Source of the DNA: Verrucomicrobiales bacterium
Lineage (GTDB): Bacteria > Verrucomicrobiota > Verrucomicrobiia > Limisphaerales > CAIMTB01
Assembly: GCA_020845805.1 (NCBI GenBank)
Contig: JADLFD010000416.1
Coordinates: forward strand, 1-59,570
DNA: 59,570 nucleotides
Direction of reading: 5' to 3'
How positions within the stretch are numbered: position 1 is the first letter of the stretch; the number at the start of each line of letters is the position of its first letter. The notes beneath the pieces were generated by a model. The model had not been told where the DNA came from. It ran no database searches and was given only the letters and a program-made list of their open reading frames with translations. A program made the position numbers and the translations under genes. Positions 2,315-41,731 of this stretch are shown piece by piece.

Positions 2315-2323
2315 AAGTACCTC

Positions 2324-2620: not shown

Positions 2621-2637
2621 GGCGGCAGCGGTTGAGG

Positions 2638-3380: not shown

Positions 3381-3408
3381 TAAAGGGAAGGGTGCTTCCT
3401 GCCGATCT
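3381..3408 (+). promoter_or_regulatory. Sigma-28 (FliA) promoter upstream of cheR
   Basis: TAAAGGGA-agggtgcttcct-GCCGATCT, i.e. TAAA-N16-GCCGAT. It sits 88 nt upstream of the cheR ATG. Confidence 0.6.
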
Positions 3409-4317: not shown

Positions 4318-4334
4318 AGAGCAGAGAGAGCCGT

Positions 4335-5716: not shown

Positions 5717-5743
5717 CCGTTGCGCCATCCCGGAAGGCCTGCC

Positions 5744-6901: not shown

Positions 6902-6941
6902 AGGTATCTCGCGTCCGATCGAGACAGTCTCTCAAGTGATC

Positions 6942-6968
6942 GGGGTGGGTGCCGATGAATGGGATGTC
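6942..6968 (+). promoter_or_regulatory. Sigma-28 promoter for second flagellin
   Basis: TCAAGTGA-tcggggtgggt-GCCGATGA, compared with the consensus TAAAGTTT-N11-GCCGATAA. It leaves a leader of about 135 nt. Confidence 0.6.
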
Positions 6969-9807: not shown

Positions 9808-9868
9808 ACCTCTTATCCTGATTTCCATGAATGGTCCGCATCGACCGACGCACACCGCCTGGCGGGAA

Positions 9869-9876
9869 GGGGGGGG
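9869..9876 (+). repeat. G8 homopolymer in the 5' region of the lipoprotein gene
   Basis: The sequence aaggggggggtgaacaggggATG has eight consecutive G that end 10 nt before the ATG. Confidence 0.9.
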
Positions 9877-9886
9877 TGAACAGGGG

Positions 9887-10564
9887 ATGCACCGGTTCCT
9901 CGCTCTGACGATTCTTCTTAGCGCCCTGGCTCCCTGGGGAGCCGGCTGTGGCACCGCCACCGACGTGCGCACCCGCCTCGCCACTCCGGGGCCGTTCTAT
10001 CAGCCGACGAACGTCTTTCGCGCGGACGCCAAGCTACCGGCCAGCCTCAAGCGGGTGGTGGTGCTGCCGCTGACACCGGCGGGCCCGGGGGTGGACATCG
10101 CTTCGGCGCCCGCGACTCTGGAACCGCTGTTGATCCAGGAGTTGGGGAAGTCGGGGCGGTTTGAGCTTATGCCCATGGCGCCGGCGGCGCTGAAGCAGTT
10201 GACCGGCCGGGCGACCTGGAGTGCCAGCGATCTGTTCCCCACCAATTTCTTCGATCGTCTCCGGGACTCGACCGGCTGCGACGGCGTGCTGTTTTCCGAG
10301 GTCACGGCCTACAAGGCCTATCCGCCCATGACGGTGGGTTGGCGTTTGCGTCTGATGGACGTGGACGGACCGACCGTGTGGTGGGCGGTGGACGAGGTGT
10401 TCGACGCGTCGAACGCCTTGGTGGCCAACGCCGCCAAGCGGTATCACCTGACCAACGCAGGCAAGCCGGCGGAATTGACCGATCCGGCCGAGATCCTGCT
10501 ATCCCCGCGTCGTTTCGCGGGTTACGCGGCCAGTGCGTTGGTGGAGACGTGTCCGAAAAGATAG
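9887..10564 (+). CDS. Lipoprotein, DUF799/GNA1162- or FlgO/LpoB-like fold (putative flagellar accessory)
   Basis: MHRFLALTILLSALAPWGAGCGT is a signal peptide with a lipobox. It is followed by VVVLPLTP...GRFELMP...CDGVLFSEVTAY...RLRLMDVDGPTVWW. I chose the internal ATG at 9887. Confidence 0.6.
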   Translation: MHRFLALTILLSALAPWGAGCGTATDVRTRLATPGPFYQPTNVFRADAKLPASLKRVVVLPLTPAGPGVDIASAPATLEPLLIQELGKSGRFELMPMAPAALKQLTGRATWSASDLFPTNFFDRLRDSTGCDGVLFSEVTAYKAYPPMTVGWRLRLMDVDGPTVWWAVDEVFDASNALVANAAKRYHLTNAGKPAELTDPAEILLSPRRFAGYAASALVETCPKR

Positions 10565-10578
10565 CAGTGAGTTTTGCC

Positions 10579-10606
10579 TAAAGGAATTTCACAGGTACGC
10601 CGATAG
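10579..10606 (+). promoter_or_regulatory. Sigma-28 promoter upstream of flgM-like/fliS
   Basis: TAAAGGAA-tttcacaggtac-GCCGATAG. This is the closest match to TAAA-N15/16-GCCGATAA in the window. Confidence 0.7.
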
Positions 10607-10665: not shown

Positions 10666-10929
10666 ATGGAAGTCCATGCCAACAACAACACGAATGGAGT
10701 CGATCCGGTCCGGTTCTCGCGCACGGCGCCGCGCCGCCCGGCTGAACCCACCCAAGACCAGACCAGTTTCGAGGGGGTCAACGCGGTGAATCGCGCCTTG
10801 GAGGCGACCCCCGCCAGCCGATCCGAAGCGGTGGATCGCGCCACGGGTCTGATTGGTGACTTAACCTATCCGCCCCGCGAGACGATTCAGAGATTGTCAC
10901 ATCTCCTGGCGTTGAAACTCCAGGAATGA
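10666..10929 (+). CDS. flgM: Putative anti-sigma-28 factor FlgM (alternative: FlaG-like)
   Basis: 87 aa with a disordered N-terminus. The C-terminus SRSEAVDRATGLIGDLTYPPRETIQRLSHLLALKL fits the FlgM pattern R-x-E-x-V...I...Y......I...LL. A sigma-28 promoter lies upstream. Confidence 0.5.
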   Translation: MEVHANNNTNGVDPVRFSRTAPRRPAEPTQDQTSFEGVNAVNRALEATPASRSEAVDRATGLIGDLTYPPRETIQRLSHLLALKLQE

Positions 10930-11896: not shown

Positions 11897-13885
11897 ATGG
11901 GCGTGACGGCGAACGCAGACCTTGGCGACGCAACGGATCTTCCGGCGGACGACGTTCCCGCGCGGGCTGGGCTGGGGGCGGCCTCCTGGGTGGACGGCGG
12001 CCAGGCGGTGCTGGATGCAGCGGGGCAAATCCTTTCGCACAACGACGCGCTGGGCGTCTGGTTGGGAGGCGGCGATCCGGATTCGGGTTTGGGTGTGGCC
12101 TTCTGGGATTTGTTGCAGCGTCGTTTTCCCGCTTCGGAGATGGCGATCCAGTCTTTGCGGGTCGATCCGGTCGTCTTTGCGTCGATCGATCTGGAGGGGA
12201 GCGGAGACGAGACGGACGGGGGCTGGTGCCGGCTGGAGCGGACGCGGGTGGGGGAGTCGGAGGTGGTTCGTCTCGGCTCGATGCTGGCGCCGGGCAAGGA
12301 GCTTGCGGAGCAGGGCTGGCGCGAGGCCTACAGCGGGCCGGCGGCGGGTCGGGAGCTGTTTCTTCGCCTGCAACGCGCCGAGGCCCAGCTGCAGAAGCTC
12401 TCGCAGCACTGGCCGGGAGTGATCTTCAGCCAGCGCCCGGATTTCGATTTTCATTTTGTCAGCGGCCGCATCGAGGAACTGACGGGGGTGAGCCTGGAGG
12501 AGTGGCGGCGGCGCCGCGGCCGGTTCCTGGATATCGTGCACGAGTCGGACGTGGCGGAGTTGCAGAACCAGTGCCGCCTTTCCGCCCGCAGCGGGCAGTC
12601 GGTGACCAACACCTTCCGGATCCGCAACGTACAGACCGGGCGGGTGAGTTACGTGCTGGAGCACCGGCAGCCTTCGTTGAGCCGGAGCGGGCTGTTGTTG
12701 GGGTACGAGGGGGTGTGGCTGGATGTCACCCGCCAGACGCTGGCGGAGAAGCTTCTGACTTCGGCGGCGTGGAAGGAAACGCTGGCGGTGCTCACCATGG
12801 GGTTGGCGCACGACTTCAGCAACGTCATGGCCGGGATTCACTCGCTGAGCGAGTCCTTCCTCAGCCAGCTGGAGGAGGGACACGCGTTCCGGGAAGGGCT
12901 CGACCTGATCAAGAAGAGCTCGCTCCAGGCCTCGCAGCTGGTGCACCGCATCGTGAATTTGCACCTGGGCAAGCCGGGGGAACGCAATTACCACGACCTG
13001 AACCAGATTGTCGGCGAGTTGTTGGAGCTGGTGCGCAAGGTCATCCCCCGCCGCATCGAAGTGATCTCGGAGCTCTCGCCGGAGGCGTTGCCGGTTTACG
13101 TCGACGCGGTGGAATTCCGCCAGGTGATCATCAACCTGGCGCTGAACGCGGCCGACGCGATGCCCGAGCGCGGCCGTCTGGTGCTGCGCACGGCGCGGCA
13201 GGCGAGCCGGCCGGGTGCGAGCAGCTGGCACGGGGTCGCGCTGCGGTTCCCCTGCGTCTGTCTGACCGTGGCCGACAACGGGACCGGGATCCGTCCCTCC
13301 CATCGCGACGCGGTGTTCGATCCGTTCTTCACCACCAAGGCCGGGGGCAAGGGTTCCGGGCTGGGACTGTACAACGCCCGATTGTTCGCGGAGAAACACC
13401 AGGGCGGCATCGCGCTGGATTCGGAGGAGAAGGTGGGCACGAGTTTTTACGTCTGCCTGCCGGAGGCGGACTTCACCGAATCAGAGCGTGCGGAGTCCGC
13501 GGCCGGGCCGGAGGCCCAGCGCCGGGGTCTGTTGCTTTTTGCTTCTTCGGACAGCCTGGCCGGGCCGACGGCGGAGATGCTGCGCACGGAGGGGTACCAC
13601 GTCGCGGTGGCGAAGCTCACCGAACAGGCTGGGGACATTCTGGGGGGGGGCGACTATCTATACGAGGGCGTGTTCATCGTGCTGGAATCGGCGGGGACCA
13701 GCCTCGCCCCTGCGGTGGCCTCGTGGGTGTCGCGACATCCGCGCCTGCGCGTCATCCTGCGGCCTCTGGGTCGTGATGGGGACGATCTTGAACCCGAGTT
13801 GGTGCGGTTGGCGGATCTGGTTCTGAATCCCGAGTTGTCGCAGCGCTCGTTACTGGAGAAGCTGCGCGCGACCCTCAGCCGCTGA
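11897..13885 (+). CDS. PAS sensor histidine kinase with C-terminal Asp-less pseudo-receiver
   Basis: The H-box is GLAHDFSNVMAGI, the N-box INLALNAADAM, G1 DNGTGI and G2 GSGLGLYNA. The C-terminal roughly 130 aa are REC-like, but FIVLE replaces the acceptor Asp. Confidence 0.85.
   Translation: MGVTANADLGDATDLPADDVPARAGLGAASWVDGGQAVLDAAGQILSHNDALGVWLGGGDPDSGLGVAFWDLLQRRFPASEMAIQSLRVDPVVFASIDLEGSGDETDGGWCRLERTRVGESEVVRLGSMLAPGKELAEQGWREAYSGPAAGRELFLRLQRAEAQLQKLSQHWPGVIFSQRPDFDFHFVSGRIEELTGVSLEEWRRRRGRFLDIVHESDVAELQNQCRLSARSGQSVTNTFRIRNVQTGRVSYVLEHRQPSLSRSGLLLGYEGVWLDVTRQTLAEKLLTSAAWKETLAVLTMGLAHDFSNVMAGIHSLSESFLSQLEEGHAFREGLDLIKKSSLQASQLVHRIVNLHLGKPGERNYHDLNQIVGELLELVRKVIPRRIEVISELSPEALPVYVDAVEFRQVIINLALNAADAMPERGRLVLRTARQASRPGASSWHGVALRFPCVCLTVADNGTGIRPSHRDAVFDPFFTTKAGGKGSGLGLYNARLFAEKHQGGIALDSEEKVGTSFYVCLPEADFTESERAESAAGPEAQRRGLLLFASSDSLAGPTAEMLRTEGYHVAVAKLTEQAGDILGGGDYLYEGVFIVLESAGTSLAPAVASWVSRHPRLRVILRPLGRDGDDLEPELVRLADLVLNPELSQRSLLEKLRATLSR
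13642..13650 (+). repeat. G9 homopolymer inside histidine kinase gene
   Basis: The sequence ctg ggg ggg ggc encodes LGGG. Nine consecutive G counted. Confidence 0.9.
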
Positions 13886-13893
13886 GTCTGACC

Positions 13894-15204
13894 GTGAGCA
13901 CGCCGCCTTCATCCCCGACCCCCGCGACCACGCCCGGGGCCCCTTTGTCTCCCGGGCTGCGCCGTCTGTTGGTGGTGGACGACGAGGAAATCGTGCTGGT
14001 TGCCCTGCGCGAGACCCTGCTGCGGGTCGGGTACGAGGTGGTGGCGACGGGGGACGCGGCGGATGCCCTCGAGAAGCTGAAGCAATCGGCGTTTGCGGTG
14101 ATCATCACCGACCAGCAGATGCCCCGCATGACGGGGCTCGAATTCCTCTCTCGGGCCAAGCAGGTGCAGCCGGATGCGACGCGCATCCTGATCACCGCGG
14201 TGTTGAACCTCAGTACGGTCATCGAGGCCATCAACACAGGCGAGATCTACCGGTTCGTCATCAAACCGTGGTTGCGCGAAGAATTCCTGGGGGCCATCGA
14301 AAGCGCCGTCCAGCGTCACCAGCTGGTCGCGCGCAACAAGGAGTTGCAGGCGGAAACGCAGGTGGCCAACGCCCAGTTGGTCACGCTGAACCGCGAACTC
14401 GAGTTGCAGGTGGCCCGCGTGGCCGAGCAGAACCGCGAGCTCGAGGTGCTCAACGGCGCGCTTCAGCAGAATCTCCAGCGGTCGGTCGAGCTGTGCGTCA
14501 AGACGATGGAGACTTTCTACCCGACGCTGGGGATGCAGGCGCGTCGGGTGCACGAATTGTGCCGTTCCATGGGAATGAGCGCCGGGCTTTCGCCCGTGAA
14601 CCAGCGTGCCCTTGAGATCGCCGCCTGGCTCCATGACGTCGGTTTGGTGGGCGTCCCGCGTCGGTTGATCCGGCGATGGCAGATGGGCAACGAACCCCTC
14701 AGCGAGGCGGAACGCTCCCTGATCGAGCAGCATCCTGTGCTGGGCGAAGAACTGGCCTCGTTCGTGGATCCGCTCGAGCCCGTGCGCTCCGCCATCCGCA
14801 CGCATCACGAACGATTTGACGGGAAGGGGTACCCGGCGCGGCTGGCGGGGGAAGCCATTCCCTGGCTGGGCCGGCTGCTGGGAGTGGCGGTGGCCTATGC
14901 CGAGAGCGACCTCGACCAGGCGGGTGCCCTGGCTCAATTGCGATCGGAGAGTGGCACGGCGTTTGATCCCGAGGCGGTGCTCATCCTGATGCGCTCGCTG
15001 CCGAGGGCGACGCTCTCCCGGAAGCAGCGGGAAATCTCCCTGTCGGAGCTTCGTCCGGGCATGGTGTTAGCCAAAGGGATCTATACCGCGAGCGGGATCC
15101 TCCTGGTGCCCGACGGCCACCAGCTCAACGAGACCTACATCGATAAACTGCGGAACCACCACCGCATCAGTCCCATCTCGCAGTCCCTGATGGTCTACTG
15201 TTGA
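13894..15204 (+). CDS. Response regulator with HD-GYP domain (RpfG-like c-di-GMP phosphodiesterase)
   Basis: The REC domain reads LLVVDDEEIV...VIITDQQMPRMTG. A coiled-coil linker follows, then AAWLHDVGL and HHERFDGKGYP. The start codon is GTG. Confidence 0.85.
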   Translation: MSTPPSSPTPATTPGAPLSPGLRRLLVVDDEEIVLVALRETLLRVGYEVVATGDAADALEKLKQSAFAVIITDQQMPRMTGLEFLSRAKQVQPDATRILITAVLNLSTVIEAINTGEIYRFVIKPWLREEFLGAIESAVQRHQLVARNKELQAETQVANAQLVTLNRELELQVARVAEQNRELEVLNGALQQNLQRSVELCVKTMETFYPTLGMQARRVHELCRSMGMSAGLSPVNQRALEIAAWLHDVGLVGVPRRLIRRWQMGNEPLSEAERSLIEQHPVLGEELASFVDPLEPVRSAIRTHHERFDGKGYPARLAGEAIPWLGRLLGVAVAYAESDLDQAGALAQLRSESGTAFDPEAVLILMRSLPRATLSRKQREISLSELRPGMVLAKGIYTASGILLVPDGHQLNETYIDKLRNHHRISPISQSLMVYC

Positions 15205-15305
15205 GCTGTGGTGGTCGACCCTGGGCGCCGGATCGGGGCGGGTCGAGGCCTGGGTGTGGGCGGGAGGCCACGGCGGCGGAGGAGGGGATGGGGCTCAAGA
15301 ACGGT

Positions 15306-15332
15306 TCAGCGTTCACCCTGGGCGACCGATAT
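15306..15332 (+). promoter_or_regulatory. Weak sigma-28-like element upstream of cheA
   Basis: TCAG-N15-ACCGATAT. The -10 is good and the -35 is poor. It lies 34 nt before the ATG at 15367. Confidence 0.25.
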
Positions 15333-15366
15333 TCCGAGGGAAGTCGTTTCGCACGAACCTCATCGT

Positions 15367-17589
15367 ATGGCTAGCCCGGAGACCCCCCAAGTCGCGCCCC
15401 TTTGCCTCATCATCGAGAAGATGGCCCTCGAGCTCGTGCTGGCTGAGCCAGGCAAGGACAATGGGTTGCTCCCCTGCAACAGCCTTCTGGGTGAGCTGGA
15501 AGATACGGCGCGCGGCCTGAAACTGCCCGCCTGTGTCCAAGACTCCATTCAGCAGGGGCGGCAGTGGATCGACGATACCTTCATGTCCGGGTCTTTCGAT
15601 CCGGCGTCGCTGGCGCGCATGCGAGGCTGGGTGGAGTGGATGCAGTTGGCCCTGAATGCCGTGCATTGCGGCACGGAACTGCCTCCTCGGCTCACGGCCG
15701 CGGTGGCGCAGGAGGCAGCACCCGCCCCGGTGACCACCCCCGCGACGGCGACTCCGGTGGCGCTCGCGCCGGAGGAACCGATGATTCTTAGTCTGGAGAT
15801 CGACGGGGAGTTGCTCCGTGAATTCTGCACCGAATCGCACGAGCACCTGCAGAACATCGAACTGGGCGTCCTGACGTTGGAGGAAAACCCGACGGACAGC
15901 GCGACGCTGAACTCCATCTTCCGCGCGTTCCATACCTTCAAGGGCGGGTCGGGCTTCCTGAACCTGCGCCCCATCAACCGCCTGGCTCACGAGCTGGAGT
16001 CCCTGCTCGATCTGGCGCGGCAGCACCGACTCACCATCGATTCCGAAGTCATTAATCTCATCCTGGCCGGGGGGGACACCCTCAAGCGGTTTGTGGTTGA
16101 GATCGAATCCCAACTCGGCGGCCAGAGTCCGGGCGCCGCGATCCTGGTACCCATCCAGGAACTTCTTCGCCGCGTGACCGTGGTGGTGCAAGGGACGGGC
16201 ACGGCCCAGGCCCACGATCCGAGCTCCGCTTCGGCCCCCGAGCCAGAGGTGGCGGAAACGCCCGCCACGCTCCCCACTCCGACCGCGATTCCAGTCGCGG
16301 CTGCGGTGGTGCCGGTTGCGACTCCCGTGGTGGTCCCCGATCCGGTCCCCGTGGTGAAATCCGCGCCCGAGGCACCTTCGACGGCCCAGGCCGGTGCGAA
16401 GTCAGGCGGTGGTGCCACGGTGAAGGTGGACACCCTGAAGCTCGACAGCCTCGTGGATCTGGTGGGCGAGATGGTGATTGCTCAATCGATGGTGATGCAG
16501 GATGGCGACATCGCCACGCTGCAAAGCCAGCAGCTGACGCGCAACCTCGCGCAGCTGGCGCGCATCACCAAGGAACTGCAACGCGTCGCGATGTCGCTGC
16601 GCATGGTTCCCATCCGCGCCACGTTCCAGAAGATGACCCGTTTGGTGCGCGATGTCTCCGTCAAGGCGGGCAAGCACGTGGAGCTGGAAATGAGCGGAGA
16701 GGACACGGAACTGGATCGCACCATCGTGGAGGAGATCAGTGATCCGCTCGTGCACATGATCCGCAACGCGGTGGATCATGGCATCGAGTCCGCGGACAAG
16801 CGCCTGGCGGCGGGCAAATCCCCGCACGGCGTGGTCCATCTGCGCGCCTTCCATCAGGGCGGCAGCATTGTCATCGAGGTCGAGGACGACGGCGGTGGAT
16901 TGCCGCGCGACCGCATCCTGAACAAGGCCATCGAGAAGGGCCTCGTCCCGCGCGGCGCGGAGCTCACGGACAGTGAAGTGTTCGACCTGATTTTTGCGCC
17001 CGGGTTCTCGACGGCGGAGAAGGTCACCGACATCTCCGGACGCGGCGTGGGCATGGACGTCGTGCGGCGGAACATCGAGAAGTTGCGTGGGAAGGTGGAG
17101 ATCCATTCCACCCTGGGCAAAGGCTCGCGGTTCACCATCTACCTCCCGCTCACTCTCGCCATCATCGACGGCATGATCGTGGGCATCGGGCAGCATCGGT
17201 ACATCGTGCCGACCCTGGCCGTGCGGGAGTCGTTCCGACCGACCGCCGACATGGTTTCCACGGTGCAAGGGCGCGCCGAGGTCGTGAATGTGCGCGGCAA
17301 ACTGATCCCCCTGCTGCGGCTGCACGAGTACTTCGGGATCGAGTCCCGCGCCGTCCAACCGACCGAGGGCATCGTGATCGTGATCGAATCGGATCGGGAA
17401 AGCCGATGCGTGCTCGTGGACGATCTGCTGGGCAAACAGGAAGTGGTCATCAAGAGCCTGGGCGAAACCTTCAAGCGGAGCCCGTCGCTCGCTGGGGCGG
17501 CCATCCTGGGCGACGGTCGGGTCGGTCTGATCCTGGATGTCGACGCCCTGGTGGGATCCAAGACCGCGCCGCTCTCGATGGCGGCCTAA
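15367..17589 (+). CDS. cheA: Chemotaxis histidine kinase CheA with extra N-terminal domain
   Basis: The Hpt domain has FRAFHTFKGGSGFL. A Pro-rich linker follows, then dimerisation, HATPase (NAVDHGIE, DDGGG, GRGVGMDVV) and CheW-like domains. I chose the ATG at 15367 inside track ORF 15208..17589. Confidence 0.9.
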   Translation: MASPETPQVAPLCLIIEKMALELVLAEPGKDNGLLPCNSLLGELEDTARGLKLPACVQDSIQQGRQWIDDTFMSGSFDPASLARMRGWVEWMQLALNAVHCGTELPPRLTAAVAQEAAPAPVTTPATATPVALAPEEPMILSLEIDGELLREFCTESHEHLQNIELGVLTLEENPTDSATLNSIFRAFHTFKGGSGFLNLRPINRLAHELESLLDLARQHRLTIDSEVINLILAGGDTLKRFVVEIESQLGGQSPGAAILVPIQELLRRVTVVVQGTGTAQAHDPSSASAPEPEVAETPATLPTPTAIPVAAAVVPVATPVVVPDPVPVVKSAPEAPSTAQAGAKSGGGATVKVDTLKLDSLVDLVGEMVIAQSMVMQDGDIATLQSQQLTRNLAQLARITKELQRVAMSLRMVPIRATFQKMTRLVRDVSVKAGKHVELEMSGEDTELDRTIVEEISDPLVHMIRNAVDHGIESADKRLAAGKSPHGVVHLRAFHQGGSIVIEVEDDGGGLPRDRILNKAIEKGLVPRGAELTDSEVFDLIFAPGFSTAEKVTDISGRGVGMDVVRRNIEKLRGKVEIHSTLGKGSRFTIYLPLTLAIIDGMIVGIGQHRYIVPTLAVRESFRPTADMVSTVQGRAEVVNVRGKLIPLLRLHEYFGIESRAVQPTEGIVIVIESDRESRCVLVDDLLGKQEVVIKSLGETFKRSPSLAGAAILGDGRVGLILDVDALVGSKTAPLSMAA

Positions 17590-21455: not shown

Positions 21456-22373
21456 TCAGACCAGACCGTCAAGGATCGAGGCGAGTCGCTCCAGGCTTCG
21501 CAGGAGGCTGGCTTCGGCGATGGCTTTTTCCGGTCCGGACCTCTGGTTGCAGAGGATGGCCCAGCCTGAGGCGTTCACCCAACCTTCGGAGGTCACTTCC
21601 CGCTGGTCCCCACTGTTGCCGATGTGCGCGTGTCGGATGAGCAGGTCGGCAATCTGGACGGCGGCGATGACGCGCGCGTGACGCGGGGCGGCATGCGGGC
21701 GGTGATGGAAGCGCGCGGCGTCCACCATCATCTCCGGCAGGCGATGGCTGGAGAGATAGAGCGCGCCGAGTTCCGAGTGGTCCACCCCCAGGACCTCCAT
21801 CTCGATCTCGGTCAGATCGCGGAGGGTTTCCTTGTGGCAGAGCTGGATGGCGGCGAAATGCTCGGGGAAAGCGGAAGCCATGACGATCTTGCCCACGTCA
21901 TGGACAAGGCCGGCGACATAATCCGATTCGTCGCTGGGCACTTCGAAGGCACTCGTGACTTCGCGGGTGAGGATGGCGGTCCCGATGCAATGCTGCCAGA
22001 ACTCGCGCCACTCGAAAGGCACCCGTCCGGCGAGCTTTTGAAAGTCCTCGATGATGGGGGTCATCATCGCGAGCTGTCGGATCTGTCGGACGCCCAGGAA
22101 GAAGACGGCTTCCTCGATGCTATTGATCGGGGTGGTGAAGCCGAAGTAGACGGAGTTGACCAGGCGCAGCAGGCGCGCAGTCAGGCTGGGGTCTCGACGA
22201 ATGATCTCGGCGATCTGGGAAGTGTAACGTTGATCTGCGTTAAGAAGTTCGCGTAGGGCGCTGTTGACGCTGCCCAGAGAGGGCAGTCGTGGACAGTTGC
22301 GCACCCGGGTTTCGATCTGCTGGGCGTCGCACCGCGGAAGCGAGGCGGGCGGTGATGCCAGTTCGGACGTCAT
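21456..22373 (-). CDS. HDOD domain signalling protein
   Basis: The sequence has LPSLGSVNSALRELLN...IAEIIRRDPSLTARLLRLVNS and GLVHDVGKIVM...LGVDHSELGA. The start is ambiguous: 22373 (chosen) or 22469. Confidence 0.8.
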   Translation of the reverse strand: MTSELASPPASLPRCDAQQIETRVRNCPRLPSLGSVNSALRELLNADQRYTSQIAEIIRRDPSLTARLLRLVNSVYFGFTTPINSIEEAVFFLGVRQIRQLAMMTPIIEDFQKLAGRVPFEWREFWQHCIGTAILTREVTSAFEVPSDESDYVAGLVHDVGKIVMASAFPEHFAAIQLCHKETLRDLTEIEMEVLGVDHSELGALYLSSHRLPEMMVDAARFHHRPHAAPRHARVIAAVQIADLLIRHAHIGNSGDQREVTSEGWVNASGWAILCNQRSGPEKAIAEASLLRSLERLASILDGLV

Positions 22374-22516
22374 CTCACGGGGACATCGGCATTTCGGGAC
22401 TTTGGGTTTAACGGGTTTGCGGGTGGCGTGCCGCGGGGGTGGGTGGGGGCGGGTTTTCCTTGAGCTCATCGGGCCGCCCGGGCTCGGGAACTCTCTTAGA
22501 ATTCCAAGACAGGCTA

Positions 22517-22543
22517 TTAAGTGCCTGCGGGAAGTGCCGATGG
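22517..22543 (+). promoter_or_regulatory. Sigma-28 promoter abutting cheX start
   Basis: TTAAGTGC-ctgcgggaagt-GCCGATGG closely parallels the flagellin promoter TCAAGTGA-N11-GCCGATGA. The -10 ends 9 nt before the ATG at 22553. Confidence 0.55.
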
Positions 22544-22552
22544 TCCATCAGA

Positions 22553-23020
22553 ATGATCGACCAACTTGACGAATTGGTCACGCAGGCGGTTGCGCGAGCC
22601 TTCGATACCATGCTCAACGTGAAGGTCGCGGCCGAGACCAGCGACGCCACGCTCTGGAACGGCGAGCCGCACGTGGCTGGGTCGGTTGGGTTTATCGGGA
22701 AACTCACCGGGGTGGTTTACATCTACTCCAGCGCCACCTTTGCCCGTGAGATCACCGGCCAACTCCTCGGACTCAAAATCGAGGAGATTGAAGGTGAGGA
22801 AATGGTCAACGACGCCATCGGTGAGCTCACCAACATGGTGGTGGGCCAGATCAAGTCCCAACTCTCCGACCGGGGTATGCCCTGTGTGCTCACCATCCCG
22901 TCCATTGTGCGGGGAAGCCAGTTTGTCGTGGAAAGCATGAGCTCCACCACGCGCCGTTTTAACACCTTCAAATGTGGTAACCATCGCCTGGGCGTCGAAA
23001 CCCTGATCAAACCCAGCTGA
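22553..23020 (+). CDS. cheX: CheY-P phosphatase CheX-like
   Basis: 155 aa. The sequence has MIDQLDELVTQAVARAFDTML...GSVGFIGKLTGVVYIY...DAIGELTNMVVGQIK, including the CheX E..N motif. Confidence 0.8.
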   Translation: MIDQLDELVTQAVARAFDTMLNVKVAAETSDATLWNGEPHVAGSVGFIGKLTGVVYIYSSATFAREITGQLLGLKIEEIEGEEMVNDAIGELTNMVVGQIKSQLSDRGMPCVLTIPSIVRGSQFVVESMSSTTRRFNTFKCGNHRLGVETLIKPS

Positions 23021-23034
23021 AACCTGCCCCGAGT

Positions 23035-24180
23035 ATGCCAATCAAGATTCTCACCGTCGACGACAGCAAGACCATCCGACTGATTGTCGGCAAGGCCTTC
23101 CGTTCCTTCGATTGCGAGGTGTTCGAAGCCTCGAACGGGGTCGAGGGCCTGGCGGTGGCCGCCAAGGAACGCCCCAACATCATCATCCTCGACCTGACCA
23201 TGCCCGTCATGGACGGGTTCGAAACTCTCACCAAGCTCAAATCGGATCCGGACCTCAAGTCCATCCCGGTGGTCATGCTGACCGCCGAGTCCGGGCGCGA
23301 AAACGTGCTGCGGATCGCCAAGCAGGGGGTGCGCGACTACCTGGTGAAACCCTTCAAAGAGGAACTGATCATCGAGCGCGTGGGGCGCATCGTCGACCTC
23401 AAGCCGAAGGGCGTCACCAATGCCAAGGCCAAACGCTTCGACGACCCGCTCACCGTGCTGGTGGTCGATGATAAGCCCGCCATCTCCGATCAGATCATCC
23501 ATGGGCTGGCCGACACCCCGTGGTCCGTTCAGGGGCGCTCCACCGCGGGAGAGGGGCTCGACTACTGCAACAAGTCCGTGCCCGACGTGGTGATCGTGAG
23601 TCTTAATCTGCCCGACAACGCGGCATTCACGTTCTTCCAGATGCTGCGGGCACAGCCGAAGACCAAGAGCGTTCCGGTGTTCGCGATGTGCGTGAAGACC
23701 GCCAGCGATGAGCAGGCGCGTGCGCAGCAGTCCGGGTTCACCGGCATCATCACCAAGCCCATCGACTTCGACGAGGTGAAGAGCCGCATCGCGCGCTCTC
23801 TCAATCTCGACACGTCCTACAAGTACTTCGAGCACCGTGACGGCGTGCTCTGGATCAAGTTGCCCGCGAACTTCGGGACCGCGGTGGCCAACGAGGTCAC
23901 CGGACAGTTGCGTCCCAAGATCGCGGAGGCGGTGGACGCCGGCCTGGGCAAAGTCGTTTTCGACCTCGCCCTGCTCAAGACGGCGGATGTCACGCTCATC
24001 AAGCTCGGTCTGGAAGTGCTGCAATTCTGTCACGAAATGTCGCTTCGCAGCCGCATGGTGGGCTCGGGCACCGTGGCCCAGGAGTGCCGCAAGTTCGAGG
24101 AAACCAAGGACTGGGCGTTTGCGCCCACCTTCGAGGAAGCGGTGGCCGCTCTCAACGGGAAGGAAGCCGTTCCCGCCTAG
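23035..24180 (+). CDS. CheY-like REC + Asp-less pseudo-REC + C-terminal STAS domain fusion
   Basis: REC1 (ILTVDDSKTIR...IIILDLTMPVMDG...VMLTAES...LVKPF) is intact. REC2 (LVVDDKPA...VVIVSLNLPD...ITKP) has Ser at the acceptor position. The tail VLWIKLPANFGTAVANEV...VVFDLALLKTADVTLIKLGLEVL...RMVGSG is STAS/anti-sigma-antagonist-like. Confidence 0.8.
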   Translation: MPIKILTVDDSKTIRLIVGKAFRSFDCEVFEASNGVEGLAVAAKERPNIIILDLTMPVMDGFETLTKLKSDPDLKSIPVVMLTAESGRENVLRIAKQGVRDYLVKPFKEELIIERVGRIVDLKPKGVTNAKAKRFDDPLTVLVVDDKPAISDQIIHGLADTPWSVQGRSTAGEGLDYCNKSVPDVVIVSLNLPDNAAFTFFQMLRAQPKTKSVPVFAMCVKTASDEQARAQQSGFTGIITKPIDFDEVKSRIARSLNLDTSYKYFEHRDGVLWIKLPANFGTAVANEVTGQLRPKIAEAVDAGLGKVVFDLALLKTADVTLIKLGLEVLQFCHEMSLRSRMVGSGTVAQECRKFEETKDWAFAPTFEEAVAALNGKEAVPA

Positions 24181-24233: not shown

Positions 24234-24773
24234 ATGAAGCCCAACCTTTTACGCCAGGGAATCTTTGCGAGCCTGGTGATCGCGGCCACCACCGCGGTCG
24301 CCGGGCCTCGCGGCTATCTGCCCCAGGCTGGGCCGACACCCCTGAGGTACGCTTCCCTGACCAAGCCGGTCGCCGCCCCACTGCCACCGTTGCCCGAGCC
24401 CACGGTGCCCAAGGCTCCGGACGAGCCCACCTCCGGCGAACCTACTCCGCCCGCTCCGGCAGAGCCGGTCACTGTGCTCGAGGAACGGCAGATCCCCGCT
24501 CCTCAACCCGAACCGACCGCCGCCGTGGAGCCGGCATCGGAACCCGAACCGGAACCGGAATCAGAATCGTCTGCACCGGAGGTCCGGGTCACGCCGTCGC
24601 CAGCGGCGCTTTCGCCCCAGCAGCTCATCACCTACTTCACGGCCGATCCCAATCCCAAGCCGCGCCCCACCAGGCCGGCCGTCACCCCCACGGTCGTGGC
24701 TCCGGTCACGTTCGTGCCGCCGCCTCCGAGTCAGAAATCGGTGAGTCAGGCGACCTACACGCGCGGCCACTAA
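24234..24773 (+). CDS. Secreted proline-rich low-complexity protein
   Basis: 179 aa. A signal-like segment MKPNLLRQGIFASLVIAATTAVAG is followed by PxP/EPEPEPESES repeats. Confidence 0.6.
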   Translation: MKPNLLRQGIFASLVIAATTAVAGPRGYLPQAGPTPLRYASLTKPVAAPLPPLPEPTVPKAPDEPTSGEPTPPAPAEPVTVLEERQIPAPQPEPTAAVEPASEPEPEPESESSAPEVRVTPSPAALSPQQLITYFTADPNPKPRPTRPAVTPTVVAPVTFVPPPPSQKSVSQATYTRGH

Positions 24774-24776
24774 TCC

Positions 24777-26225
24777 ATGTTCTCGCTCCCCCCGACCTGC
24801 GTTCTTCCCTCCCCGGCCCGTCGCCTTTTCCAGGCGGGGTGGGGGTTGGTGGCGGTCTGGACCCTCTGGGCCTCTCCGGCGGCGCCGGCTTCCGAATCGG
24901 CCGCTCGTCCGGCCTCGGCGGTTCTGCCCACGGCGGCCCATGGCCCGGTGGTGGCGCCCTCCGGACACGGTGCTCCGGCCGCCGCGGTGCCTCAGGAATC
25001 CGAAGGAACGCTGCCCAGCGAAGTCGGAGCCGGCGATTCCCCGCGCATGGAGATCGAGCGCAAAGTGCGCGAGACCTGGGACGATGGGCCTTTGGAGGAG
25101 AGCGCGGAGATGTCGTCCTTTCGCAAGCAGCTCGAGGACGGCCGCCTGGATCGCCGACAAGGCCGTCCGGCGGATGCCGTGGCTCGGTTGGTGGCTCTCC
25201 TGCGTTCGGGGGCGCCCGAGGATCTAAAGCGGTCGGCCATGATGGAACTGGCGATCGCCATCCAGGATCAGGGGGATCTTTCCCGTGCCGCCCAGACGTA
25301 TGCGCAGTACATCCAGCGGTTTCCGCGTCAGCCGGGCGTGATCGAGGCTTACCTGCGGCAGGGACTCGCCTATCGCCAGATGGGCGCCACCTCGATCGCG
25401 ATCTCCAAGTTTTATGCCGTGATGACCAGTGCGTTGAGCCTGCGTCTCGACCAGATGGAGTATTACAAACGCCTGGTGCTCCAGGCCCAGGTGGAGATTG
25501 CGGAGACGTTCTATCTCGAGGGCCGATGGGCGGAGGCAGTGGATTTCCTGCAGCGCCTGCTCAAATCCAATGCGCCTCAGCTCGACGTCGAGGAGGTGCG
25601 ATTCAAGCTCGTGCGCGCGCTGGCCGCGCAGGACAAGCGATCTGAAGTGGTCGGCCAGGCGCAGACGTTCATCGAGCGCCATCCGGATTCAGGCAACGTG
25701 CCCGAGGTGCGGTTCCTCCTCGCTTCGACACTGAAACAGCAGGGGCGCAACCAGGAGGCCCTGCAACAGGTGCTGCAGCTGCTGGAATCCCAGCGCTCCA
25801 GCGCGGATCGCGACCCGCGCGCCTGGAGCTACTGGCAGAAGCGCGCCGGGAACGAGATCGCCAACCAGCTGTACCGGGAAGGGGACTACTTCGGCACGCT
25901 ACAGATCTACCAGCGCCTGCTGACTCTCGACGAAACGGCCGAATGGCAGCTGCCCGTGCTCTACCAGATCGGCCTCGCCCTCGAGCGATTGCAGCAGCCG
26001 AACAAGGCCTTCGACGCCTATGCCCAGTTGCTGCGTCGCGAGCCCGAGGTCGCTGGCTCCGATGGTCCGTCCCCCAGCTTGAAGACCGTCCTGGAGATGG
26101 CGCGCTGGCGTCAGAAGAATCTCAAGTGGGTCCAGACCGCTGCTGCCAGTGCCGCCGCCATCCGTCAGATTCCGGATCCCACGCAACCTGCCACCAACCA
26201 TGTATCATCCTCGGGAAATCGCTGA
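24777..26225 (+). CDS. Exported tetratricopeptide-repeat (TPR) protein
   Basis: 482 aa with a hydrophobic N-terminus. Repeated A..Y..(F/L)...P / A.Y..G.. helical hairpins resemble YbgF/BamD. Examples are RAAQTYAQYIQRFPRQPGVIEAYLRQGLAY and EALQQVLQLL. Confidence 0.75.
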   Translation: MFSLPPTCVLPSPARRLFQAGWGLVAVWTLWASPAAPASESAARPASAVLPTAAHGPVVAPSGHGAPAAAVPQESEGTLPSEVGAGDSPRMEIERKVRETWDDGPLEESAEMSSFRKQLEDGRLDRRQGRPADAVARLVALLRSGAPEDLKRSAMMELAIAIQDQGDLSRAAQTYAQYIQRFPRQPGVIEAYLRQGLAYRQMGATSIAISKFYAVMTSALSLRLDQMEYYKRLVLQAQVEIAETFYLEGRWAEAVDFLQRLLKSNAPQLDVEEVRFKLVRALAAQDKRSEVVGQAQTFIERHPDSGNVPEVRFLLASTLKQQGRNQEALQQVLQLLESQRSSADRDPRAWSYWQKRAGNEIANQLYREGDYFGTLQIYQRLLTLDETAEWQLPVLYQIGLALERLQQPNKAFDAYAQLLRREPEVAGSDGPSPSLKTVLEMARWRQKNLKWVQTAAASAAAIRQIPDPTQPATNHVSSSGNR

Positions 26226-26619
26226 GCACCTGCGCAGCACCCTCTCTCTCTATCGCAGCCTTCTGACGGTCGTGGAATCGGAGAGTGCCGAGCTTCGGCG
26301 TTCGGAACCCCCTGATCTCAAGGGAAATGCAGAGTCAAAAAAGGGCTTGCTTCCCCGCTTGGTTGAGTCGCTAGATCCGCTGGCAAAGTGCCGGTCGGCC
26401 TGGCAGGCCACGGGGCCGGCAGAACGCGCCCGGCATCCGGAGGTGGGCGACTTGGTGCGCCAAAACCAGGACTTACTCATGAAGATTCTGCTACTGGACC
26501 GCGAGAACGAGCAGGCCTTGCTGCGGCATGGCTTGGTTCCCGCCCGTGAGCTGCCCTCGGTGAACCGTCAGCGCCCGCATTTCGTCTCTGATCTTTATCG
26601 CCGGCAGGGCACCCGGTGA
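26200..26619 (+). CDS. Small helical protein (FlgN/FliT-like pattern), unknown function
   Basis: 139 aa. The sequence has LYRSLLTVVESESAELRR...KKGLLPRLVESLD...QNQDLLMKILLLDRENEQAL. It overlaps the TPR gene end by 26 nt. Confidence 0.5.
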   Translation: MYHPREIAEHLRSTLSLYRSLLTVVESESAELRRSEPPDLKGNAESKKGLLPRLVESLDPLAKCRSAWQATGPAERARHPEVGDLVRQNQDLLMKILLLDRENEQALLRHGLVPARELPSVNRQRPHFVSDLYRRQGTR

Positions 26620-26632
26620 CGCCCGACCTGAC

Positions 26633-28081
26633 ATGCCCATCGAGAAGATCATCGTCCTCGAGGACGACCTGATAGGTCGGAAGAATCTCGAGCAGCAACT
26701 GCGGCAGCGACGTTTCGACGTGGCCTCCGCCAGCACGCTGGCCGAAGCCCAGGAGTTGCTCGGGCGGGACACCTTTGACCTGATTTTCGTCGATATCCGG
26801 CTGCCCGATGGCGAGGGGACGGATCTGTTGCGTGAGCTGCAATCCCGTCCGCAACGCCCGCTCGCGGTCATGACGACCGCCTTCGGCTCGGTGGAGTCCG
26901 CGGTCGATTGCGTCAAGAACGGCGCCTTCGATTACCTGGTGAAGCCGTTCACGGCCGACCAGTTGGAGGTGACCCTCAAGCGCGCCGAGCAGCACACGCA
27001 ACTCCTGCGCGTGAACCGGTTCCTCAGCCACGAACAGGACGACGACACCGGCTACGAGTTGCTGGGCAAGAGCCCGGCCATGGAGTCGCTCCGCCAGTTG
27101 ATCCGCAAGGTCGCTCCCACCCAGGCGACGGTCCTCATCCAGGGCGAGAGCGGCACGGGCAAGGAACTCGTGGCCCGCGCGCTCTACCGGCAAAGCCCGC
27201 GCGCCAACGCTCCCTTCATCAAGATCAACTGCGCGGCGGTCCCCGAGAACCTCATCGAGAGTGAGTTCTTTGGGCACGAGAAAGGCGCGTTCACCGGAGC
27301 CATCAACAAGCGCGAAGGCCGTTTCGAGCTCGCCCACGGCGGCACGATCCTGCTCGACGAGGTCAGCGAAGTCCTGCCTCAGGTGCAGGCCAAGCTGTTG
27401 CGCGTGCTCCAGGAACGGGAACTTGAGCGCGTGGGCGGCAACCGGACGATCAAGGTGGATGTTCGCGTCATCGCGACCACCAACCGTCATCTGGAGCAAA
27501 GCGTGCAACGCAAGGAGTTCCGCCAGGACCTCTACTTCCGCCTGAATGTGGTGCCCATCCAGGTGCCGCCCCTGCGCGATCGGCGTTCCGACATCCCCGA
27601 GTTGGCCGAGCAGTTCATGGCGCGGTTCGCCCGCAAGCATGGCGTGCGCGTGAGCGGTATCTCGGAGAACTGCCACCGCGTCCTGCGCGCCCACGACTGG
27701 CCGGGTAATGTCCGCGAGCTCCAGAACGTCCTCGAACGCGCTGTCATTCTCTGTGGCGAATCCGGCCTCCTGGAGTCGGAGCATCTCGGATTTGCCCCCA
27801 ACCTCGCGACCACTCCCGAGGCGGCGCTGATCGTCCCCCCCGCCGCGACGGGCACTGGAGTCCCCGGGGTTCCCGCCGCGTCCCCCGACTCGATCACCTC
27901 GCTGGCGGAGATGGAACGCCAGCAAATCTTCCGCGCCCTCGACCACACGGGCGGCAATCGCACCCACGCGGCCCGCCTGCTGGGCATCAGTATCCGGACG
28001 CTTCGGAATAAGCTCCACGAATACGGTCGGGACGGGAAGGACGAGTCGGCGGAGGATACCGCCGAGGAACTCGCCCAATAG
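26633..28081 (+). CDS. Sigma-54-dependent response regulator (NtrC family; FlrC/FleR-like)
   Basis: The REC domain reads IIVLEDD...LIFVDIRLPDGEG. The AAA+ domain has GESGTGKE, GAFTGA and ESEFFGHEKGAFTG. The C-terminal Fis-type HTH reads NRTHAARLLGISIRTLRNKL. Confidence 0.9.
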   Translation: MPIEKIIVLEDDLIGRKNLEQQLRQRRFDVASASTLAEAQELLGRDTFDLIFVDIRLPDGEGTDLLRELQSRPQRPLAVMTTAFGSVESAVDCVKNGAFDYLVKPFTADQLEVTLKRAEQHTQLLRVNRFLSHEQDDDTGYELLGKSPAMESLRQLIRKVAPTQATVLIQGESGTGKELVARALYRQSPRANAPFIKINCAAVPENLIESEFFGHEKGAFTGAINKREGRFELAHGGTILLDEVSEVLPQVQAKLLRVLQERELERVGGNRTIKVDVRVIATTNRHLEQSVQRKEFRQDLYFRLNVVPIQVPPLRDRRSDIPELAEQFMARFARKHGVRVSGISENCHRVLRAHDWPGNVRELQNVLERAVILCGESGLLESEHLGFAPNLATTPEAALIVPPAATGTGVPGVPAASPDSITSLAEMERQQIFRALDHTGGNRTHAARLLGISIRTLRNKLHEYGRDGKDESAEDTAEELAQ

Positions 28082-34865: not shown

Positions 34866-35486
34866 ATGGTCCGAAAGCTCCAATCTCCGCTGGTCGCCGT
34901 GCTCCTTGGGCTTCTGCTTTACGCCGGCGTCACGGCGGCACTCTGGCCTGCCATTGAGGTGCCCAAACCCAACAAGCCCGCCAATCCCAAGGCCATCGCC
35001 ATCAAACCTCCGCCGCCCAAAAAGGGGCCGTCCTGGGATTATGTGAACCCAGAGGTCGACCAACTCGTGGACGAGCTGAAGAAGGAACGCCAGGCCCTCG
35101 CGGATCGCGCGCGGCAACTCGATGAGCTCGCCGCCCGGCTACAGTCCGAGCGCACCGAGCTCAATGTGGTCACCCAGCAGGTCGCCCAGCTGCAGAAGGA
35201 GTTCGACAACACCATCATCCGGGTCACGGAGGAGGAAACCACCAACCTCAAGCGCCTGGCCAAGGTCTACACGTCGATGTCCCCCGAAGGCGCAGCGGTG
35301 ATTCTCAAGCAACTGGAGGAAACCACCATCGTGAAGATCCTCACCTTCATGAAGGACGGCGAAACCGCGCCCATCCTCGAAACCATCGCCAAACTCGGGG
35401 ACGAGGAGGCCAAAATGGCCGCCAGCATCTCCGAGCGTCTCCGCCTCGCCATCGTTCCGAAACCCGCCGCCAAACCCAAAACATGA
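34866..35486 (+). CDS. MotE/YlxF-like flagellar protein (MgtE_N-type domain)
   Basis: An N-terminal TM segment and a coiled coil are followed by KVYTSMSPEGAAVILKQLEETTIVKILTFMKDGETAPILE. The position matches ylxF of the Bacillus fla/che operon. Confidence 0.7.
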   Translation: MVRKLQSPLVAVLLGLLLYAGVTAALWPAIEVPKPNKPANPKAIAIKPPPPKKGPSWDYVNPEVDQLVDELKKERQALADRARQLDELAARLQSERTELNVVTQQVAQLQKEFDNTIIRVTEEETTNLKRLAKVYTSMSPEGAAVILKQLEETTIVKILTFMKDGETAPILETIAKLGDEEAKMAASISERLRLAIVPKPAAKPKT

Positions 35487-40711: not shown

Positions 40712-41731
40712 ATGGACGACTCACTCGGCGCCGCCACTCCCGAACAGGTTCTCTCGCAATTCGAGGTCGAGAACCTGCTCGCGCAGATCGCTGAGGAAGA
40801 GAATAGCATTCTCGTCCACACGATCGACAACCGGAAGGAGCGGCGGCCCAAGGACAGTGTCCAACCCTACGACTTCCGCCATCCGGCCTTCCTTTCCGCC
40901 AGTGAGTTGCGCCGCCTGCGCCTGAGACACGAGGACTTCATCCGCGCCCTCGCGGCACGGCTGTCCCTCTATCTGCGCATGGAGTTCACGGTGCAGATGT
41001 CCCAGCTCCAGACCATTCTCTACCGAAAGTTTGTCGAAAGCCTTCCCAACCCCACTCACATCAGTCTGTTCAAGGCCGACCCGCTCCCCGGCGTCTGCCT
41101 CTTGGAGGTCCATCCGCGGCTGGCCCTGACCATCATTGATCGCCTCCTGGGCGGTCCGGCCCACTCGGTGAATGCCGAACACGACCTCTCCGAGATTGAA
41201 CTCGCGCTGATGGAGCAGGTGGTGAATGTGGTTCTCTCCGAATGGTGCGGGCACTGGCACGGGGTGAGAGAGTTGCGGCCAAGCCTGCTCGGTCACGAGA
41301 CCAACGGACGGTTCCTCCAGACCTCCACCCATGACGCGGTGATGCTGATCCTGTGCATGGAGGCGCGCCTGGGCGATTGCATGGAGCGCATGCAGATCGC
41401 CTTCCCGTACTACACCCTCGAGCCGCTCATCCTCACTCTCGCCCAACAGAACGAGGCGTCGATGGGCCCCGCGCCCACCTCCACCAACAGCCGGGGTAAG
41501 TGGATTCCGCAGTTCGATGACATCCAGGTGCCGGTGACCGCCGCCTGGCCCGACCTCGAACTCGCCGCCCGCGATGTCGCCGCGCTCAAGGTCGGGGATC
41601 TCCTCGAAATCTCCCCTTCTTTCGTGGACCAGGTGAATCTCCGCCTCGCTGACGTCTCGCGTTTCCGCGGGCGCCTCGGCACCAACGGCAACAAATGGGC
41701 CGTGCAAATCACGGACGTCCTCAAAAAGTAG
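40712..41731 (+). CDS. fliM: Flagellar motor switch protein FliM
   Basis: The N-terminal LSQFEVENLL is the CheY-P binding motif (LSQxEIDxLL). It is followed by PYDFRHP and IIDRLLGG. Confidence 0.93.
   Translation: MDDSLGAATPEQVLSQFEVENLLAQIAEEENSILVHTIDNRKERRPKDSVQPYDFRHPAFLSASELRRLRLRHEDFIRALAARLSLYLRMEFTVQMSQLQTILYRKFVESLPNPTHISLFKADPLPGVCLLEVHPRLALTIIDRLLGGPAHSVNAEHDLSEIELALMEQVVNVVLSEWCGHWHGVRELRPSLLGHETNGRFLQTSTHDAVMLILCMEARLGDCMERMQIAFPYYTLEPLILTLAQQNEASMGPAPTSTNSRGKWIPQFDDIQVPVTAAWPDLELAARDVAALKVGDLLEISPSFVDQVNLRLADVSRFRGRLGTNGNKWAVQITDVLKK

Follow-up and report, generated by a model that had tools for sequence, protein, structure and literature searches.

A receiver–pseudo-receiver–STAS response regulator encoded behind cheX as a candidate chemotaxis output in Verrucomicrobiota

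CheY is a free single domain of about 120–130 amino acid residues. Which protein, then, receives the phosphoryl group in a flagellar and chemotaxis gene cluster that encodes CheA and the phosphatase CheX and in which no gene for a standalone CheY is found? The question is raised by a 59,570-nucleotide stretch of DNA from a Verrucomicrobiales bacterium (assembly GCA_020845805.1, contig JADLFD010000416.1, positions 1 to 59,570 of the forward strand), hereafter called the window. Directly behind cheX lies a gene for a response regulator of 381 residues, which is built in order from an intact receiver domain (REC1), a pseudo-receiver (REC2), and a domain of predicted STAS fold. We propose that this regulator may be phosphorylated by CheA and reset by CheX, and that it may serve chemotaxis, its pseudo-receiver acting as an adaptor as in PleD and its STAS domain as a docking output. 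The proposal draws on sequence, and we give it a probability of roughly 45%. It is favoured because REC1 is the most constrained part of the protein, equivalents of the FliM-binding face of CheY are kept in REC1, FliM keeps a peptide of the CheY-binding type, and the window has no other single-domain gene resembling cheY.

The protein matches the Pfam Response_reg family (PF00072) in two stretches, with a score of 143.4 bits (cutoff 30.2) and an E-value of 3.7e-42. REC1 contains the phospho-relay residues D9, D10, D53, T83, and K105, of which D53 is the acceptor and lies within the sequence IILDLTMP, and it also contains Y102. Conservation was assessed over 77 homologues, all distinct sequences from species-representative genomes. 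D9, D10, D53, and K105 are present in every one of them, T83 in 76, and Y102 in 74. Mean identity within the family is highest in REC1 (82%), followed by REC2 (64%) and the STAS domain (60%). The best single-domain matches of REC1 among Protein Data Bank (PDB) sequences are RR468 and CheY proteins. In an alignment to E. coli CheY, residues A90, I95, Y106, V108, K119, and K122 correspond to S86 (or A86), V91, Y102, V104, R115, and R118 of REC1; the last four are the equivalents of residues on the FliM-binding face.

REC2 is a second receiver fold without the acceptor aspartate. Its segment 140–255 is modeled as alternating β and α elements with a predicted local distance difference test score (pLDDT) of 90–96, and its best PDB matches are the D1 and D2 domains of PleD. 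The pocket residues D145, D146, T222, and K241 are retained, and the acceptor place is occupied by Ser189 (in VVIVSLNLPD; codon at 23599–23601), which is found in 76 of the 77 homologues. The strict conservation of Ser189 in an otherwise complete pocket suggests that the pocket is still used, either for a ligand or for serine phosphorylation.

The C-terminal domain is confidently predicted to have the STAS fold. The Pfam STAS family gives no match to the C terminus of the window copy even at E ≤ 10 (gathering score 22.6 bits), and a profile of 28 homologous C termini finds only unrelated PDB sequences, with a best E-value of 0.3. Since profile searches miss the window copy, the STAS identity rests on the predicted fold and on Pfam matches at the family level. 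Twenty of the 28 C termini match PF01740 at E ≤ 10 (best E-value 1.2e-5) and 17 match STAS_2; one relative, P0121, reaches 34.2 bits against Pfam STAS, above the gathering score. The AlphaFold2 model of residues 252–381 has a pLDDT of 89, a predicted template modeling (TM) score (pTM) of 0.82, and the element order β-β-α-β-α-β-α-α. In a Foldseek search of the PDB with this model, each of the top 17 matches is a bacterial STAS protein, at TM scores of 0.6–0.8. RsbS (6jhk) ranks first (TM 0.72/0.80, E-value 5e-5), followed by RsfB, a mycobacterial antagonist, TM1442, and SpoIIAA. An hhalign comparison with SpoIIAA, RsbV, and RsbS gives weak support; it spans 99 columns end to end (E-value 0.0015, probability 16%). 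Conserved features of the domain include D318, G343-S344, and the patch E355-E356-x-K-D-W360-x-F362.

The original prediction had described a complete CheY-like receiver at the N terminus, a second receiver with serine at the phospho-acceptor position, and a STAS-like C terminus. The residue counts, Pfam, AlphaFold, and Foldseek agree with this three-domain architecture in each part, with Pfam silent on the C terminus of the window copy itself. It had further suggested a partner-switching or protein-binding output, and here the two alternatives part. A classical anti-sigma-factor antagonist would be phosphorylated on a STAS Ser or Thr by an RsbW/SpoIIAB-type kinase and reset by a PP2C phosphatase, with the receiver input added. 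The likeness of the fold to RsbS, RsfB, and SpoIIAA speaks for such a role, as does a Ser or Thr in 31 of the 77 sequences at position 320, equivalent to the phosphorylated Ser58 of SpoIIAA. However, this position is Asn in 40 of the 77, Ser in 17, Thr in 14, and another residue in 6. Neither an RsbW/SpoIIAB-type or other small HATPase_c kinase nor a PP2C/SpoIIE phosphatase turned up when open reading frames (ORFs) of the window were scanned, or in the gene tables, annotated with Pfam, of nine related loci reached by protein look-up (L001–L003 and L084–L089). The variable phosphoserine position and the missing kinase and phosphatase genes make classical partner switching unlikely, and we reject a Ser-phosphorylated switch of this kind as extremely improbable. 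Protein binding independent of phosphorylation is a plausible role for the STAS domain.

The regulator belongs to a numerous family. Full-length homologues share 64–93% identity and are labeled 'response regulator' or, by the Joint Genome Institute, 'cell cycle response regulator'; a few of them carry a precomputed STAS match. A profile of the C-terminal domain retrieved 181 proteins at E ≤ 0.001 from 1.84 billion representative proteins and did not recruit generic STAS proteins. Judged from this profile, the C-terminal domain forms a narrow and divergent subfamily of STAS domains. A receiver domain is present in each of the ten relatives of diverse architecture that were scanned. Variant architectures comprise a single REC-STAS form of about 250 residues, REC-HD-GYP-REC′-STAS (P0141), REC-Hpt-REC′-STAS (P0193), and REC-REC′-STAS-VWA (P0210). 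The STAS subtype in the latter three (see also loci L086 and L089) has the appearance of a transferable output module specific to receivers. A relative is encoded in 151 species genomes of the Genome Taxonomy Database, and the best 80 of these 151 are almost all Verrucomicrobiota, among them Limisphaerales/Pedosphaera, Verrucomicrobiales, and Opitutales.

Two irregularities were seen in this set. In locus L014 (about 9289–10369), the regulator gene appears to be split into two ORFs, one of them a 106-residue N-terminal fragment with a change of frame; a frameshift, an assembly error, or a pseudogene is the likely cause. Several metagenome-assembled genomes titled Akkermansia muciniphila, Akkermansia sp., Bifidobacterium sp., or Bifidobacteriaceae (L011, L015, L047, L051, L058, L059, and L065) also carry the locus, which is of the environmental Verrucomicrobia type, and they look mislabeled or mis-binned.

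The gene order is highly conserved among 83 homologous loci: a divergent HDOD gene, cheX, the regulator, a small ORF in some cases, a TPR gene, a FlgN-like gene, a sigma-54 activator, flgB, flgC, fliE, fliF, and fliG. Clusters of cheA, cheW, cheB, and cheR often adjoin these loci. cheX lies immediately 5′ of the regulator gene in 62 of 78 evaluable loci. In the Opitutales, the most distant loci, only the cheX-regulator pair and the sigma-54 activator persist, and the short REC-STAS relative P0221 has the same partners in rearranged order (sigma-54 activator, CheX, REC-STAS), with TPR and small ORFs near. Another short relative has flagellin, fliD, fliS, a small REC gene, and a sigma-54 activator as its neighbours. 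Given the frequent adjacency to cheX and its survival in the Opitutales and in P0221, the regulator is strongly linked in function to CheX, as had been proposed from adjacency in one genome.

The cheX product is a genuine member of its family. It scores 70.4 bits against Pfam CheX (PF13690; cutoff 27), with a CheC motif match at residues 84–106, and the call made from the sequence was exact to the nucleotide. The active-site motif D/S-x3-E-x2-N is intact in the translation as D87-x3-E91-x2-N94. Against the NCBIfam model CheX_Thtogales the E-value is 1.6e-14 and the score 53.9, which does not reach the equivalog cutoff of 280.

A phmmer search with REC1 against all six-frame ORFs found no standalone cheY, as had been predicted; it returned only the regulator itself, the sigma-54 activator, the hybrid kinase, CheB, and a REC-HD-GYP protein. 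Some 1.3 Mb of DNA around the 83 homologues, many with cheA, cheW, cheB, and cheR, contain only two small REC ORFs (L010 and L018), neither clearly CheY-like. CheA is the sole chemotaxis kinase in the cluster. A candidate target of a CheY-type protein is also encoded: FliM begins with the peptide VLSQFEVENLL, which we take to resemble the CheY-P-binding motif LSQxEIDALL.

The absence of a second CheY from the window also bears on another possible role, in which the fused protein is a sink for phosphate or a module docked on CheA. Its STAS domain would tether the receiver to CheA, REC1 and CheX would drain phosphoryl groups and set signal termination, and another CheY would drive the motor. CheS, a standalone STAS protein, reportedly tethers CheY1 to CheA in Sinorhizobium. 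Co-encoding of the regulator with a phosphatase fits a sink, and standalone STAS genes do occur in chemosensory clusters; CheS attaches to CheA there and changes both the binding of CheY and the flow of phosphate (PMC12654446; PMC9239204). Against it stand the lack of a second CheY in the window, the mere two small and not clearly CheY-like receiver ORFs in the 83 loci, and the C-terminal profile, whose 181 hits are REC-linked relatives only. We consider a sink quite unlikely.

In the favoured scheme, CheA would phosphorylate D53 of REC1 and CheX would remove the phosphate. Phosphorylated REC1 would act like CheY on the N-terminal peptide of FliM, or would repack against the pseudo-receiver as in PleD, or both. 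Repacking may alter the oligomeric state or expose the invariant acidic and aromatic STAS surface (EExKDWxF and D318). The STAS domain would then serve as a phosphorylation-independent output for protein docking, rather than as a Ser-phosphorylated anti-sigma antagonist. Overall, the regulator would be a CheY tethered to an adaptor in the style of PleD and to a STAS module for docking.

The promoter region places the operon in time. A sigma-28 (FliA)-type motif precedes cheX. Of 60 distinct loci, 51 have the motif [ACT]AA[AG]-N13-17-CCGAT ending 10–12 nucleotides 5′ of the ATG of cheX; the background rate is 0.6% per 69-nucleotide interval. Its general form upstream of cheX is (C)T(A/C/T)AAG-N14-15-GCCGAT. 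With a −10 element ending so close to the start codon, the cheX mRNA would be almost leaderless and too short at its 5′ end for a Shine-Dalgarno sequence. The window contains four matches to the sigma-28-type motif, whereas 0.53 are expected and no shuffled sequence reached four. Together, these motifs appear to outline a late flagellar regulon. Since the same motif stands before cheR and flagellin, the cheX-regulator operon falls into the late class of chemotaxis and filament genes. A scan for sigma-70 promoters and intrinsic terminators around the genes gave nothing useful, and no terminator was detected 3′ of the regulator gene, including the space between it and the next ORF, smallA.

Several observations weigh against the favoured scheme. 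The CheY model NF007901 scores 74.7 bits with REC1 alone and 90 bits with the whole protein, at a cutoff of 189, and REC1 scores alike against the NCBIfam PleD, CheY, and PhoB models, all below their cutoffs. If REC1 packed on REC2 through α4-β5-α5 in the manner of PleD, this face would not be free for FliM. The full-length AlphaFold2 model has a pTM of 0.49 and superimposes on PleD with a TM score of 0.31 and a root mean square deviation of about 14 Å; the inter-domain geometry is therefore unreliable and no claim is made on domain packing. Matches of the full-length model in the PDB are dominated by receivers. A standalone CheY could sit elsewhere in these genomes, including just outside the window. 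In 16 of the 78 loci, all of one subclade, cheX is absent and the HDOD gene is directly adjacent to the regulator gene. Two PAS histidine kinases of the cluster, one of them a CckA-like hybrid, are alternative phosphodonors, and two more distant relatives adjoin ordinary or hybrid histidine kinases rather than CheA. Finally, the sigma-54 activator neighbours the regulator almost everywhere, even where loci are rearranged or distant (Opitutales, L085, and L088), a persistence that also fits a role in gene regulation.

The PAS kinases and the sigma-54 activator figure in another explanation, in which the regulator is a checkpoint for flagellar gene expression or assembly and does not act on the motor. 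REC1 would be phosphorylated by a PAS or hybrid kinase, the protein would dimerise like PleD, and the STAS domain would bind and modulate a component of transcription, such as the sigma-54 activator or an anti-sigma-28 factor. The CckA-like hybrid kinase lies just 5′ here and in about ten other loci, and the regulator gene heads an array that runs, with no terminator detected, towards the activator and flgB. The window also encodes a FliA-type sigma factor. STAS domains are common in sigma-factor control, the PDB matches of this one are anti-sigma antagonists, and the Pseudomonas aeruginosa STAS protein HsbA is said to bind FlgM. However, the operon promoter is of the late, sigma-28 type, like those of cheR and flagellin, and of all the associations of the regulator, the one with a CheY-P-type phosphatase persists most. 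No FlgM is recognisable in the window, where an 87-residue candidate ORF has no Pfam match, and RsbW-type or PP2C partners are missing among the ORFs scanned. A checkpoint role is a serious contender that we nevertheless hold to be doubtful.

The CheA- and CheX-controlled reading can be extended to a wider one. The regulator may replace single-domain CheY throughout the flagellated Verrucomicrobiota, with a single phosphorylation controlled by CheA and CheX that switches the motor through REC1 and docks the pseudo-receiver-STAS tail onto the sigma-54 activator, an anti-sigma-28 factor, or CheA. Chemotaxis would thereby be coupled to flagellar gene control. Ser189 could be a second regulatory site in this reading, for example by forming a stable phosphoserine that mimics phosphoaspartate. 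We regard this extension as unlikely.

Table 1. Positions of the regulator, its domains, and associated features in the window.
Feature	Position	Strand	Basis or remark
Response regulator, 381 residues, three domains	23035..24180	+	Pfam and predicted fold
REC1, residues 1–120	23035..23394	+	Pfam Response_reg, residues 5–116
REC2, residues 139–256	23449..23802	+	Second Response_reg stretch
STAS-fold C-terminal domain, residues 262–373	23818..24153	+	AlphaFold2 model, Foldseek, family Pfam matches
cheX, CheC/CheX-family phospho-receiver phosphatase, 155 residues, ATG start	22553..23020	+	Pfam
Sigma-28 (FliA)-type promoter motif, TTAAG-N14-GCCGAT	22517..22541	+	Ends 11 nucleotides ahead of cheX ATG
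Sigma-28-type motif (T-N-AAG-N13-16-GCCGAT), cheR	3381–3406	+	
Sigma-28-type motif (T-N-AAG-N13-16-GCCGAT), flagellin	6932–6956	+	
Sigma-28-type motif (T-N-AAG-N13-16-GCCGAT), 87-residue ORF before fliS	10579–10604	+	
Similar motif, TTAAA...GCCGAT, facing divergent HDOD gene	22411–22385	-	
FliM N-terminal peptide, VLSQFEVENLL	40748..40780	+	Translation; FliM Pfam match
cheA (Hpt, dimerisation, HATPase, CheW domains), candidate phosphodonor	15208..17589	+	Pfam
HDOD-domain gene, divergent	21456..22469	-	Pfam HDOD E-value 6.4e-52; synteny; most constant neighbour of the regulator
smallA, Pro-rich ORF with N-terminal signal-like sequence, directly 3′ of regulator	24234..24773	+	
TPR protein, signal-like N terminus, conserved downstream neighbour	24777..26225	+	Pfam TPR families; synteny
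smallB, small conserved ORF, weakly FlgN-like	26200..26619	+	Pfam FlgN E-value 8.7e-4, under cutoff; synteny
Sigma-54-dependent response regulator (REC-AAA+-HTH; FlbD/FlgR/NtrC-like)	26633..28081	+	Pfam, NCBIfam, synteny

Library scans of the ORFs show that the window, whose G+C content is 65%, is a single large flagellar and chemotaxis supercluster. Genes for structure and export comprise flgB, flgC, fliE, fliF, fliG, fliH, fliI, fliJ, flgD, a flgE-like gene, fliL, fliM, fliN, fliP, fliQ, fliR, flhB, flhA, flhF, motA, motB, and genes for rod, ring, and hook-associated proteins. Filament and control genes are fliW, two flagellin genes, fliD, and fliS. The chemotaxis genes are arranged as cheR-HDOD-cheB, then a PAS kinase, REC-HD-GYP, cheA, and cheW in succession, and then the PAS hybrid kinase. 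Around the regulator, the order is the HDOD gene on the reverse strand, cheX, the 381-residue gene, the small secreted-looking ORF smallA, the TPR gene, the small FlgN-like ORF, and the sigma-54 activator. smallA has no Pfam or NCBIfam match. The real start of the HDOD gene is probably near 22366, giving about 303 residues, because the longest ORF overlaps its own putative promoter and the homologues in L001–L003 have 305–307 residues.

Several other features of the cluster deserve mention. About 200 N-terminal residues of the cheA ORF, ahead of the Hpt domain, have no Pfam match (15208–15810); either the start codon is placed too far upstream or CheA has an unrecognised N-terminal domain. The genes for a PAS histidine kinase, a REC-HD-GYP cyclic di-GMP phosphodiesterase (NosR-like, 328 bits), and CheA directly adjoin one another (11897–17589), and this trio is kept in L041, L049, L052, and L066. 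Its conservation suggests a cyclic di-GMP output branch of the same chemosensory system. A second HDOD gene sits between cheR and cheB (3496–6901), an arrangement that recurs in at least ten related loci, including L033, L036, L044, L053, L055, L068, and L071, so that HDOD proteins look like integral parts of the chemotaxis system.

The filament genes add three observations. fliW lies upstream of a flagellin gene (1505–3078, reverse strand), and a public 1.4-kb contig (L084) encodes an identical flagellin protein with a gene called csrA just ahead of it, which together indicate a FliW-CsrA-flagellin control module. A 1071-residue ORF between fliJ and flgD (35483–38698) has no Pfam match and is, by position, possibly a very long FliK-like hook-length protein. 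The 87-residue ORF (10666–10929), preceded by a sigma-28-type motif, is flanked by a lipoprotein-like gene and fliS. Its C terminus (GDLTYPPRETIQRLSHLL) recalls FlgM or FlaG, but with no Pfam match neither assignment was accepted.

Found across the phylum and strongly conserved, the regulator may be the chemotaxis output of Verrucomicrobiota, which are abundant in soil and freshwater and in which, to our knowledge, motility has hardly been studied. If so, it would be a phylum-level exception to the rule of a free, single-domain CheY. It would also make STAS a direct, non-phosphorylated output of a two-component receiver, beyond its parts in anti-sigma antagonism and transporter regulation. Annotation based on Pfam misses the divergent STAS domain and so stops at 'response regulator' or 'cell cycle response regulator'; the REC-REC′-STAS family could receive a dedicated model.

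Among known systems, the stem of the regulator is most similar to PleD of Caulobacter (REC-REC′-GGDEF). Both proteins have a phosphorylatable N-terminal receiver followed by a second one without the acceptor Asp, which is replaced by Asn in PleD D2 and by Ser here. No full-length PDB match is better than PleD, either by sequence (phmmer E-value 2.5e-25, residues 2–299) or by fold, and the NCBIfam PleD model (NF007135) aligns to residues 1–254 with 117 bits, far from its equivalog cutoff of 474. The two proteins differ in output and in context. The GGDEF domain of PleD is replaced by the STAS fold, with no GGDEF match in Pfam, and the regulator is encoded with CheX in a flagellar and chemotaxis setting. 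It shares the tandem of receivers with PleD and lies outside the PleD family.

In context, the regulator is closest to CheY proteins that work with CheX, as in Thermotoga and in the CheX-CheY3 pair of Borrelia. They have in common the phospho-relay and α4-β5-α5 residues, an adjacent CheX with an intact E/N motif, and a cluster with cheA, cheW, cheR, and cheB and a FliM bearing a CheY-binding-type peptide. However, three domains in 381 residues, in place of one in about 120, and a score below the CheY equivalog cutoff rule out an orthodox CheY. The closest parallel is thus PleD for the REC-REC′ stem of the regulator and CheY with CheX for its surroundings, and it is a member of neither family.

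The C-terminal domain resembles the single STAS proteins SpoIIAA, RsbV, and RsbS in its fold, in the order of secondary structure elements, and in the conserved Asp before helix 2 (D318, equivalent to D56). It differs from them in being fused to two receivers, in having neither a conserved phosphoserine nor a cognate kinase and phosphatase nearby, and in a sequence similarity too low for Pfam or a PDB profile search to detect the window copy. It has the fold of the anti-sigma-factor antagonists without their defining features, and it was not assigned to them for lack of a conserved Ser or Thr at helix 2 and of a neighbouring kinase and PP2C phosphatase. CheS of α-proteobacteria is also a STAS domain in a chemotaxis gene cluster without a known sigma-factor role (PMC12654446), but it is a separate small protein, whereas the STAS domain here is covalently joined to a receiver.

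Two further systems pair a receiver with an added output. In PhyR, phosphorylation of the receiver can unmask an output that binds a partner and thereby drives partner switching (PMC5964349). This output is sigma-like rather than STAS. Cle proteins are CheY-like receivers with an appended module that can tune the flagellar motor (PMC5677366). Their module is a short tail that binds cyclic di-GMP. Neither PhyR nor the Cle proteins combine a pseudo-receiver with STAS. A literature search on response regulators with STAS domains and on Verrucomicrobia chemotaxis found no paper on the REC-REC′-STAS family, in keeping with the original prediction, which did not recognise the architecture as characterised. 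Response regulators whose output is protein binding are a known kind, and the REC-REC′-STAS regulator would be a variant among them.

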